Notes: generated from the sequence alone by a model not told the origin. Shown: positions 8,172-10,411, numbered from the whole stretch's first letter. The stretch: 60,451 bases of DNA, filler included, from Dugesia japonica (GCA_001938525.1; 5 parts of 5 records of this genome joined end to end with filler, not necessarily neighbours in it); one strand, 5' to 3'. Program-made: numbers and translations.

Positions 8172-8356
8172 TATATGGAAAAGTTTTTTGCGGGCCACAT
8201 TAAGATTTATACGACAGGAGAGAAAAAGATCACGGCGAAGGCAGTTAATTAGCTCCAAACCAAATCATATCTCAGGATGAGACAGATCTCATCGGTTTTG
8301 CCGAGCTATTTCTACTGCCGACAACAAACGAGGTAGATTTAGATCGGGAATCTTAA
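8172..8356 (+). pseudogene. Terminal cassette ORF a (homolog of 25977-26159)
   Basis: ttctag acceptor, ATG at 8175; ATLRFIRQERKRSRRRQLI.../QDETDLIGFAELFLLP matches PTLRLIRKGRKASWLRQLL...PDETDLSCLAEMFPLP; frameshifted. Confidence 0.7.
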
Positions 8357-8473
8357 CTTTCATTATTTTTGTTTAATGAATTGAAATTTTCTTTTGTTTG
8401 TTGTTGTCCCACCATTTTAATAAAAAAAATTGCTTATTCATTTTCTTTTATTTAATTTTGATTTTTTGTTTAG

Positions 8474-8758
8474 TGGAATACAAATTGGAATTAACTTTAG
8501 ATGGAAAAACCAACCGAATGATTTTTAAAAGATACGTCAACCCATTTAATATGAGTGCCGGCAAACTTGTAGACCGGTCAAATTTATCCTCTGAGAATGC
8601 GACTGACGAAAGACATTGGGACGCGATGGTACGTCAGGCCTTTCAAATTTGGACCGGTCTCGATTGAAGCTATCTCACCATGCACGACACATCAATGTGT
8701 TTTCGTAGATGAGATGGTAAACGACTACTTATGGAGCATTAGAAACTCTATTAACTAG
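8474..8758 (+). pseudogene. Terminal cassette ORF b (homolog of 26289-26639)
   Basis: tttgtttag acceptor; EYKLELTLDGKTNRMIFKRYVNPFNMSAGKLVDRSNL...AFQIWTG...VNDYLWSIR matches MESIWERTIDRRTRRIIFRRHHNPQNRDAGI*VDSSNL...NFQQWNG...INNLLWGVR. Confidence 0.7.
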
Positions 8759-8945
8759 TTCATTGTTTTCATATTTTGACATAAAATAAATTTAATGTAG
8801 TTGTAACACGTCTTCCTGTTCTCTTATTAAAGTTTTAAGTGACCATTCTTTTTAGTTATAAGGTAAATCATCACAGTAATTTTTATAGTCGTATTTTTGT
8901 AAGTAACTTTTGATTGTTTTATCGATTCATTTATTTAAAATTCAG

Positions 8946-9310
8946 TGAGTCGTCCACGATATCTCTCCATTATTTCCACTAAAGAGGTGCTAGAGGATAA
9001 TGAAGATAGTGAGATGACCTGGGAAGTCTATAGACTCGCAAAATGACAATGGTATGCTAAAACTGCCGCAGCTAATGCCAAAGTTAAACGATATAAGCAC
9101 AAATGTCAAGAATACCGGCTTGAGGCCGAGGCCTTCCATATACAGGAGAGAACTTGGAAAAATCAGCCAGAAAATTTTGCCAGCATAATAAAATGCCTTC
9201 ATAAAAGAGAAGATCAATTAGTGGCTGATATTTTATCCCAACGAAAAAGAATTGCAGTAGATCCCCTTTACATCGACAAATCGGTGCAAAATTCACAGAT
9301 CCGTAATTGA
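8946..9310 (+). pseudogene. Terminal cassette ORF c (~120 aa, helical, one internal TGA)
   Basis: aaattcag acceptor then TG AGT CGT...; SRPRYLSIISTKEVLEDNEDSEMTWEVYRLAK*QWYAKTAAANAKVKRYKHKCQEY...; GC-richer than flanks. Confidence 0.5.
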
Positions 9311-9440
9311 TATCGGATTCATGTGCTGCAAAATATATATTTATGGAGAGTCTTACAACAATTTATGAATTACCTGTTGTACTTCTTCTATTTCTAAAAT
9401 GACTGTGTTTGATAAATATAATAATGTTTCTGTTTTTCAG

Positions 9441-9801
9441 TGCTAAGAATTAAACTTCCAACTAGTTTTCGCCGTTGTTATAGGTTAATATAGAAGTTGT
9501 TGTTGGAGCGAAATTTCTCCAAAAGATGCAAGCGGTCACAATTACACCACCTTACTCAGCGCAATCGTCTTATAAAAAGTTAGAAATAGTTAAAAGAAAA
9601 CAGGACGAGCTAGCAAATTGGGTAAAACAAATCCACATGCATAAAATCGATTTCCTAAAAAGATACATCGTGGATCTGTCCACCCGCCTAGAACTCAAAA
9701 TATGGGTCCGGTAAAACAGTGATGATGACGAGGCTACATTTGACTTTTCGAATGACTAGCCAGCCCAGTGGCTTGGTCCTAAGGCACTAAATTTTATTTA
9801 A
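9441..9801 (+). pseudogene. Terminal cassette ORF d (disrupted), followed by AATAAA
   Basis: tgtttttcag acceptor then TG CTA AGA...; LRIKLPTSFRRCYRLI*...KLEIVKRKQDELANWVKQIHMHK...; AATAAA at 9800. Confidence 0.45.
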
Positions 9802-10411
9802 TAAAAAATTTTTGTATTAAATAAATTTTATTACCAATCTATTTTTAATATCTTGCTCAGTTTAATTGGGGAAACATTGAATCCGAACAAAAGGTGTATA
9901 AGTCTAAACTCCAAGTATACGTTGGGAGTCAACAGCTCTACACTGAAAACCTAAATTGGGACTTTAGGTAAATTCTTCGAAAGGTCCCTTGAGGGCTGTC
10001 TTTTCCCCCAGTCACATTTTTCTATCAGTACCTCAGGTGGAACCCCAAAACTTTATTGGTGAGTCATTTTATTTCATTCTCCTGATCTGATTGTTAAACT
10101 TTATTATTATTACTTTTCGTATTTAAAATTTCCAATCCTCCTTCTTGGGTGATTTACGCATTAATTTTTTTGTTTAAAAAGTGGTTGATCTTTTTGATTG
10201 ATTGATTCTTAAAATTGATTATTTTTATTACTGCAATATTTTTTATCAGGTNNNNNNNNNNNNNNNNNNNNNNNNNNNNNNNNNNNNNNNNNNNNNNNNN
10301 NNNNNNNNNNNNNNNNNNNNNNNNNNNCCATCGTCATTGTCTTTAAAACTTTATAATTATCGATTTCTGAATCCGTTATTTAGTTCTGGATCTATTTACT
10401 TTATTTATTAT

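Follow-up and report, generated by a model that had tools for sequence, protein, structure and literature searches.

The four small coding islands at 8172–9804 of the window (the whole stretch of Dugesia japonica DNA analysed, 60,451 nucleotides long) are, on balance, best read as a dead battery of accessory genes, likely of a large Ty3/Gypsy retrotransposon, that was once expressed by alternative cis-splicing. The first-pass annotation had proposed a polycistronic accessory cassette like that of retroviruses. Part of that proposal stands: the islands appear to be accessory coding genes of a retroelement, they bear marks of past selection, and they lie behind conserved acceptor-like sites. The remainder does not: this copy is dead, a true operon would depend on weak AATAAA signals, and trans-splicing of the flatworm type would be out of phase with three of the four ORFs. 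The islands, followed by a second cassette on another scaffold, are:

8172–8356, plus strand: relic of ORF a, after the acceptor at 8171; has an ATG of its own at +4 and is frameshifted in two places; sister contigs exist
8474–8742, plus strand: relic of ORF b, behind the acceptor at 8473; begins TG and is open to a stop at 8665–8667
8946–9310, plus strand: relic of ORF c, after the acceptor at 8945; opens with TG and spans 121 codons, interrupted by a single stop
9441–9804, plus strand: relic of ORF d, behind the acceptor at 9440; begins TG, with a frame change after about 15 codons
25974–26159, plus strand: ORF a homologue of the second cassette; intact, 60 aa (25977–26159), with AG/GTA ATG at its acceptor
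26288–26639, plus strand: ORF b homologue of the second cassette; 116 codons with one internal stop and AG/G ATG at its acceptor

The islands are set off by composition, as first described, with a GC content of 0.40–0.41 against 0.19–0.27 in the spacers, which are 43–57% T. Each lies behind a polypyrimidine tract ending in AG, the G falling at 8171, 8473, 8945 and 9440, and with island ends as chosen here the distances from stop to AG are 117, 203 and 130 nt. The AG/TG junction (the slash marks the putative splice point) reported for b, c and d is present at all three, while a instead has AG/TAT ATG. AATAAA does follow a, b and d (8419, 8785 and 9800/9820) and is absent after c; the signal is weak, with shuffle probabilities of 0.04, 0.20 and 0.27. 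No ribozyme or other Rfam RNA was matched in the window.

The acceptor motif alone is not selective, since the four AGs of the cassette are 4 of 12 acceptor-like AGs in the 3.3 kb at 6950–10250. An acceptor-like AG falls within 5 nt of the start in 2.9% of shuffles for a, 6.0% for b, 5.3% for c and 5.2% for d, a test that is partly circular for c and d because their starts were defined by the AG; over the sites of both cassettes the shuffle odds are 1–6% per site. TG follows 17 of 197 acceptor-like AGs on the plus strand of the window and 16 of 197 on the minus strand, against three of four in the cassette, a pattern chosen post hoc, yet TG in the coding phase is the very pair that completes an AUG. 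All four homologous starts (a and b in each of the two cassettes) are preceded, at a distance of 0–3 nt, by an AG that follows a T-rich tract, and the AG-to-ATG spacing of a is identical in the two cassettes despite saturated synonymous sites. The a of the second cassette fails the strict T-count filter, though its upstream sequence ends in a T run and an AG; a third acceptor-like AG of that cassette, at 26714–26715, is followed by an assembly gap. The spacers of the two cassettes no longer align and the acceptors stay at the same places. A sister copy in the public runs X1 and X5 aligns at 8200–8350 and again from 8463, ten bases ahead of the AG of b, with no gaps to 8658 and an unalignable spacer of 110 nt where the window has 112 nt; the extent of this alignment weakly suggests that it shares the AG/TG register of b. 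These comparisons indicate that the acceptors are more than chance and that acceptor-like sites are conserved: several of them stand each directly before a conserved ORF start, as in splicing of the complex-retrovirus type.

The second cassette is collinear with a and b (25974–26639; tblastx E 2e-10; 45% amino-acid identity); the a relic is homologous to its intact ORF, and b matches its b (26289–26639) at 43% identity. A check of the dN/dS type, as the first-pass annotation had suggested, gave pS 0.77 against pN 0.36 over 110 of 111 codon pairs, one stop pair being left out (bootstrap of the difference 0.27–0.55). The shifted sense frames gave pS/pN of 0.48/0.44 and 0.39/0.47; the codon blocks were picked from tblastx matches, which biases pN low, and this control shares the bias in part. 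The corresponding values for pol are 0.62 and 0.10 (230 pairs). The comparison indicates that a and b were under purifying selection in the past. Contigs of the same species covering 5900–10250 number 1129 and 971 in two runs and are mostly less than 90% alike; 2 sister contigs cover 8217 in a, 7–8 cover 8564 in b and 3–4 cover 9444 in d, and the 3' part of d is common to 43–58 contigs at 9741–9757. The accessory-gene battery is real and multi-copy, and was once under selection.

Outside the species, a profile search with b against 1.84 billion proteins gave three matches, namely two NHL-repeat false positives and one homologue (P0085, 94 aa, on a 512-nt metagenome contig; E 3.6e-15, 45–46% identity) aligned from residue 1. 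A second round brought back only P0085 among 126 candidates, and no b-related loci were found in the metagenome or viral contigs searched. The protein search with c yielded no homologue (0 of 1 candidates), and the coding past of c and d is argued from codon usage and frame length because neither has a homologue outside the species. Pfam gave no credible match for a–d, Methyltransf_8 on c falling below its cut-off, and a PDB search with b found nothing (best E 0.55). The AlphaFold model of b (pLDDT 54.6, pTM 0.30) is too weak for fold comparison. The proteins might, at a guess from analogy, have regulated the element RNA or host cells.

Described at first as four open ORFs, the islands are in fact broken, with two frameshifts in a, stops in b and in c, and a change of frame in d. 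From the AG, in the xTG phase (x being the base that a leader would supply), the open run is 63 codons in b, 32 in c and 16 in d. The conserved domain of b spans about 62 residues, and the frame of c is best or tied in six of eight codon-usage windows; in the d island a second acceptor-like AG lies at 9483, and the phase of d is uncertain. Contigs of X1 and X5, either of which is perhaps the source sample, carry all four islands in pieces of 503–1271 nt with 0–3 differences and no gaps, so the breaks lie in the DNA, and an assembly artefact is ruled out as their cause. The cassette in this copy is dead, and a–d are apparently silent here. Coding on the minus strand was rejected for a and b, where both copies have stops; a–d are not detectably paralogous among themselves.

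The window consists of small, AT-rich eukaryotic scaffolds, rich in transposon remains and strung together by N-linkers. The cassette lies on the first scaffold, about 4.6 kb 3' of a decayed pol and beyond a further coding region. Its setting is as follows:

554–3520, plus strand: decayed Ty3/Gypsy pol with reverse transcriptase, RNase H and integrase (Pfam RVT_1, RT_RNaseH, Integrase_H2C2)
3600–6950, plus strand: decayed extra coding region 3' of pol, made of ORF pieces with A-rich skew
9840–10050, provisionally plus strand: high-copy segment resembling a terminal repeat, its right edge sharp and at about 10048–10050
15300–25508, minus strand: related large Gypsy element on the other scaffold, head-to-head with the second cassette

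The first pol contains many stops and frameshifts and is 74% identical in nucleotides to that at 15300–17626 (minus strand). The order protease, RT, RNase H, integrase is found by Pfam at 1349–2857 (plus) and 17990–16440 (minus), which identifies both, by domain content, as copies of a Ty3/Gypsy LTR retrotransposon (Metaviridae) of one large lineage on separate scaffolds. The region at 3600–6950 has Cys-rich, hydrophobic and coiled-coil-like stretches by eye and no Pfam match in three frames with X; relatives of it near 6030–6300 occur in DNA and RNA runs, and 6046–6191 is matched by high-depth contigs. It could be an unrecognised envelope-like gene. The element at 15300–25508 starts from a zinc-knuckle gag, continues through some 5 kb of ORFs that have no assigned family and two protease-like stretches, and then has RT-RH-IN. 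The protease-like stretches are of the aspartic type and successive (about 18490–18100 and 17820–17550, minus strand), and the element as a whole has a Burro-like layout. BIR, BCL2, MATH, ankyrin and SMC-like domains gave no Pfam match in 18400–23700 (three frames with X), where decay reduces sensitivity.

Among 83 matches the nearest RT relative by identity (65%) is P0003, which carries a fusion-glycoprotein domain (PF24664, E 7e-23) in frame ahead of protease and RT. This unnamed protein, from an 8154-nt JGI contig, has a fusion domain of the Monjiviricetes type and resembles a Burro-like env-pol fusion in a metagenome. A possible trace of env in the window is a 47-aa match directly behind the P0003 fusion domain (E 2e-5), with no Pfam match. 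No loci related to P0003 were found among viral contigs, and the best 80 of 108 generic Gypsy loci had no tblastx match to the non-pol parts. A piece of a different Gypsy family at 1–551 abuts pol at 554 and replaces the 5' part of the element; it is 83% identical to 29183–29706, and its family also occurs at 27947–30552 (minus). Elsewhere in the window lie a small Gypsy-like remnant at 10412–13342 between direct repeats of about 100 nt that are 95% identical (10412–10513, 13242–13342), ORF pieces resembling hAT/ZBED transposase by eye at 53290–54442 (minus), and a DNA_pol_B_2 fragment of a protein-primed polymerase at 60037–60324 (minus), which we take to be Polinton-like.

Under alternative cis-splicing, one upstream leader exon would be joined to any of four 3' splice sites, and each choice would produce an mRNA with a different ORF first; a scanning ribosome would then translate a single accessory protein from each mRNA, in the manner of complex retroviruses. 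The leader would belong to the element's 5' end, absent from this copy. The donor offered earlier lies in the following stretch:

7552–7676, plus strand: donor GG/GTAAGT at 7570 with a nearer acceptor-like AG at 7675–7676; candidate for an ordinary intron of 107 nt

As had been noted, this donor is in phase only with a, being in phase 0 after a six-codon ATG run. It ranks second among donor-like sites in 600–9500 by an approximate matrix, and the AG at 7675–7676 has a branch-like CTAAT 26 nt upstream and an ATG next to it. The flanks (7068–7505, 7652–8089) are near single-copy depth with almost no sister copies, the bin holding the donor itself having no coverage because repeats were skipped. 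As a general leader it was therefore rejected: it fits a only, acceptor 7676 is nearer and its flanks are near single-copy, so that it is probably not the leader of the cassette. In 600–9500, outside island c, no strong donor with an A-ending exon was found. A before GT is a minority donor type, exons ending in G being commoner. The related element has an A/GTAAGT at 25698, on the gag strand of its 5' region, as a lead only. A donor-like TTG/GTGAGT stands just past the end of the element, and is followed by a T-rich stretch with an acceptor-like AG at 10249 and then an assembly gap (10059–10249).

A leader ending in A would supply the missing first base of the AUG in b, c and probably d, and these ORFs could then be translated from the conserved start only once spliced; in a and in the second cassette the ATGs stayed whole. 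That the leader supplies the A, as the first-pass annotation proposed, agrees with b, whose xTG codon aligns with Met1 of both homologues (the second-cassette b and P0085, the Met1 of the latter being the choice of a gene caller), and with the continuous frame of c. Inside b and c the earliest ATG (at +28 and +55) is not in frame, and if b began at its first in-frame Met, invariant residues 2, 6 and 10 would be missing. The whole ATGs of a and of both ORFs of the second cassette stand against the proposal as a rule, and the split start is therefore not general. Given a cis-spliced battery, the odds are about even that an A-ending leader made the start codons of b, c and probably d whole in this sub-lineage. 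A wider proposal is rather doubtful: that at least three unrelated small genes shared one split start, an A-ending leader completing the AUG of whichever gene was joined, while a sister lineage had whole ATGs. The nearest precedent is the env of Drosophila gypsy, where splicing joins AT to G to make the start codon (PMC2585583; bioRxiv 2023.08.03.551782).

Trans-splicing, with the precursor cut and polyadenylated after each ORF and a spliced leader added at each downstream AG, would dispense with a cis donor, and no fitting one was found. Spacers of 117–203 nt suit an operon, given spacings of about 100 nt in Macrostomum (PMC8629364) and below 300 nt in parasitic flatworms (PMC12582326), and the Gypsy element Cer1 has an SL1-spliced accessory mRNA (PMC3315495). 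AATAAA occurs in three of four spacers here and one of two in the second cassette, but its frequency is near chance and it is missing after c. Phase is the chief difficulty. Flatworm spliced leaders end in ATG (PMC12582326), and the phase that such a leader imposes stays open for 6 codons in b, 0 in c and 1 in d, and for 9 in the b of the second cassette, so that trans-splicing of the flatworm type is unlikely. Spliced leaders ending in G occur in other phyla. One of these (the SL1 primer of PMC3315495) would yield a weak GUG start. A trans-spliced operon is thus an unlikely origin for the cassette.

Alternatively, the same cis-splicing could have used a leader ending in an ordinary AG, in which case b–d would start at a GUG made by the splice or extend a short leader peptide in phase 1. 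A G at the end of the exon is the usual arrangement at donors, and AG/GTAAAT is present at 9968 in the terminal repeat. Spliced env genes of the ZAM and Beagle clades begin in a short upstream peptide (bioRxiv 2023.08.03.551782). An upstream ATG, however, would not favour TG at three of four acceptors, where the base rate is 17 of 197. A GUG made by the splice would serve poorly, GUG being a weak start codon. We consider such a leader distinctly unlikely.

A further possibility concerns layout. On the first scaffold pol and the cassette share a strand, with the cassette coming after pol and running out into the terminal segment; on the second it points away from gag, and a single layout does not fit both copies. 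The cassette adjoins gag/pol in two of two copies, in opposite orientation, and a sister copy joins b straight to 9861, without c and d; the cassette is modular. No listed sister contig bridges pol to cassette, the stretch at 7068–8089 being near single-copy depth. The terminal segment is reached by 111 and 107 contigs at 9982 against 46–58 at 9757, and 39 and 34 contigs leave it at 10048 with unlike flanks, so the boundary at about 10048–10050 is likely the end of the element or of an LTR. It is the one terminal segment seen, and neither a PBS nor a PPT could be assigned. The stretch 9861–10058 was discarded as a fifth coding exon, since it behaves as a terminal repeat. Two blocks of the segment have their best non-self match upstream of the second-copy a (score 39 against a mean of 19.5, sd 3.7, in 1154 windows; 6 of 300 shuffles), and the alignment of the whole region is marginal (11 of 500 shuffles). 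The segment also contains an imperfect inverted repeat at 9904–9968, forming a hairpin whose score is reached by 0 of 300 shuffles. A 36-nt motif present in both copies (9843–9872, 25699–25735) and kept at the deletion junction of the sister may mark a primer site or the edge of an LTR. The interval from gag to the second cassette (25695–25960) holds back-to-back TATA-like boxes (about 25750–25765, minus; 25801–25810, plus), a possible bidirectional promoter.

The opposite orientation, the TATA-like boxes, the block matches and the sister junction at 9861 would all suit a separate module beside pol, either a non-autonomous derivative or an antisense unit with an internal promoter, in place of the 3' part of the pol element; internal promoters and antisense extra ORFs are known (PMC4402516; PMC7264820). 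Both cassettes nevertheless adjoin the same gag/pol lineage, the whole-region alignment is marginal, and a module would alter the layout but not the need for splicing. It is a very unlikely alternative to cis-splicing from the element's own leader. Translation of unspliced RNA by leaky scanning, reinitiation or internal entry at GTG or ATG, with accidental AGs, is highly improbable: AG/TG does contain GTG, acceptor-like AGs are as frequent as noted above and the sORF1 and sORF2 of the MDG1 group lie on unspliced RNA (bioRxiv 2025.03.14.642691), but the spacers contain ATGs, the shuffle odds are low at every site, and the AG also persists ahead of starts that are complete ATGs (those of a in both copies and of the second b), so it is not derived from GTG.

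The spliced reads expected at the four acceptors did not appear: four raw-read RNA runs (6–25% of each run covered) gave 0 joints, with almost no coverage there. Over 3500–10250 they gave 134 reads, of which 0 were at least 99% identical to the window, 3 were 95–99%, 7 were 90–95% and 124 were below 90%. No loose read ends fell at the acceptors among the 14 of 18 listed, again with almost no coverage, and the contig runs X15 and X16, taken as RNA, had 0 at every joint among the 15 of 45 listed. Neither spliced-leader tags nor 3' ends were seen on reads, the acceptors being without coverage. Diverged reads fell on the terminal segment in all four runs, and reads of relatives near 6030–6300; the strand signal differed between runs. 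Two groups of reads were set aside, 5–23 per run at 8775–8807, matched over only about 33 nt with unlike flanks, and spacer reads at 8440–8470 that matched a T run. The value of the locus is limited because the copy is dead and the splicing is putative; the family may be extinct.

In complex retroviruses (HIV, HTLV, foamy viruses) accessory genes lie near the end of the element with one acceptor each. The cassette resembles them in having several small genes near an element end, each behind its own acceptor (PMC7264820 in part), and differs in its non-overlapping ORFs, its AT-rich spacers, its Gypsy-type RT and the lack of sequence homology in the searches made. Among Ty3/Gypsy elements, env of the Drosophila gypsy/springer subclade is likewise a gene after pol whose AUG is completed by a 5'-leader splice (PMC2585583; bioRxiv 2023.08.03.551782); it is a single ORF, split AT/G and established by experiment, whereas at most three small non-env ORFs, split A/TG, are read from the DNA here. 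C. elegans Cer1, also a Gypsy element, has a spliced accessory mRNA of 2.4 kb that is partly SL1 trans-spliced (PMC3315495; PMC10309623), but it encodes one multi-exon protein sharing Gag peptides and not a row of separate ORFs (PMC3315495).

The planarian Burro/GYPSM1 elements (PMC6431247) share with the related window element a gag bearing zinc knuckles and kilobases of additional coding DNA that separate gag from protease; accessory ORFs occur in them, and the arrangement of P0003, with its fusion-glycoprotein domain in frame before PR-RT, is the one described for Burro. The window copy differs in having no BIR, BCL2, MATH or ankyrin matches and no detected env, with about 5 kb from gag to PR, and section 7 of PMC6431247 describes no spliced battery of small ORFs. 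Membership among the Burro-like giants would call for more than 30 kb in total and a planarian host; the scaffolds here are 11–15 kb. Conserved small extra ORFs, sense or antisense and with poly(A) sites between them, are found in LTR elements as sORF1/sORF2 of the MDG1 group (bioRxiv 2025.03.14.642691) and as the additional ORFs of plants (PMC7264820), but these are unspliced (MDG1) or number one or two, and have no acceptor per ORF. In the open-access articles found, no Gypsy element is described with a row of small ORFs that each follow an acceptor and have a split start; the cases reported there are either one spliced gene (env, Cer1) or small ORFs on unspliced RNA.

A multi-gene accessory region with one acceptor per gene is a hallmark of complex vertebrate retroviruses. 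ORF b represents a protein family with no Pfam or PDB match. A shared split start, if it existed, would act as a one-of-many switch and leave the genes untranslatable on genomic RNA, and the paired lineages with whole and split starts would offer a natural comparison for the evolution of such starts. If the reading is right, a four-gene battery in an invertebrate Gypsy lineage would mean that a regulatory design of the retrovirus type arose outside the retroviruses.
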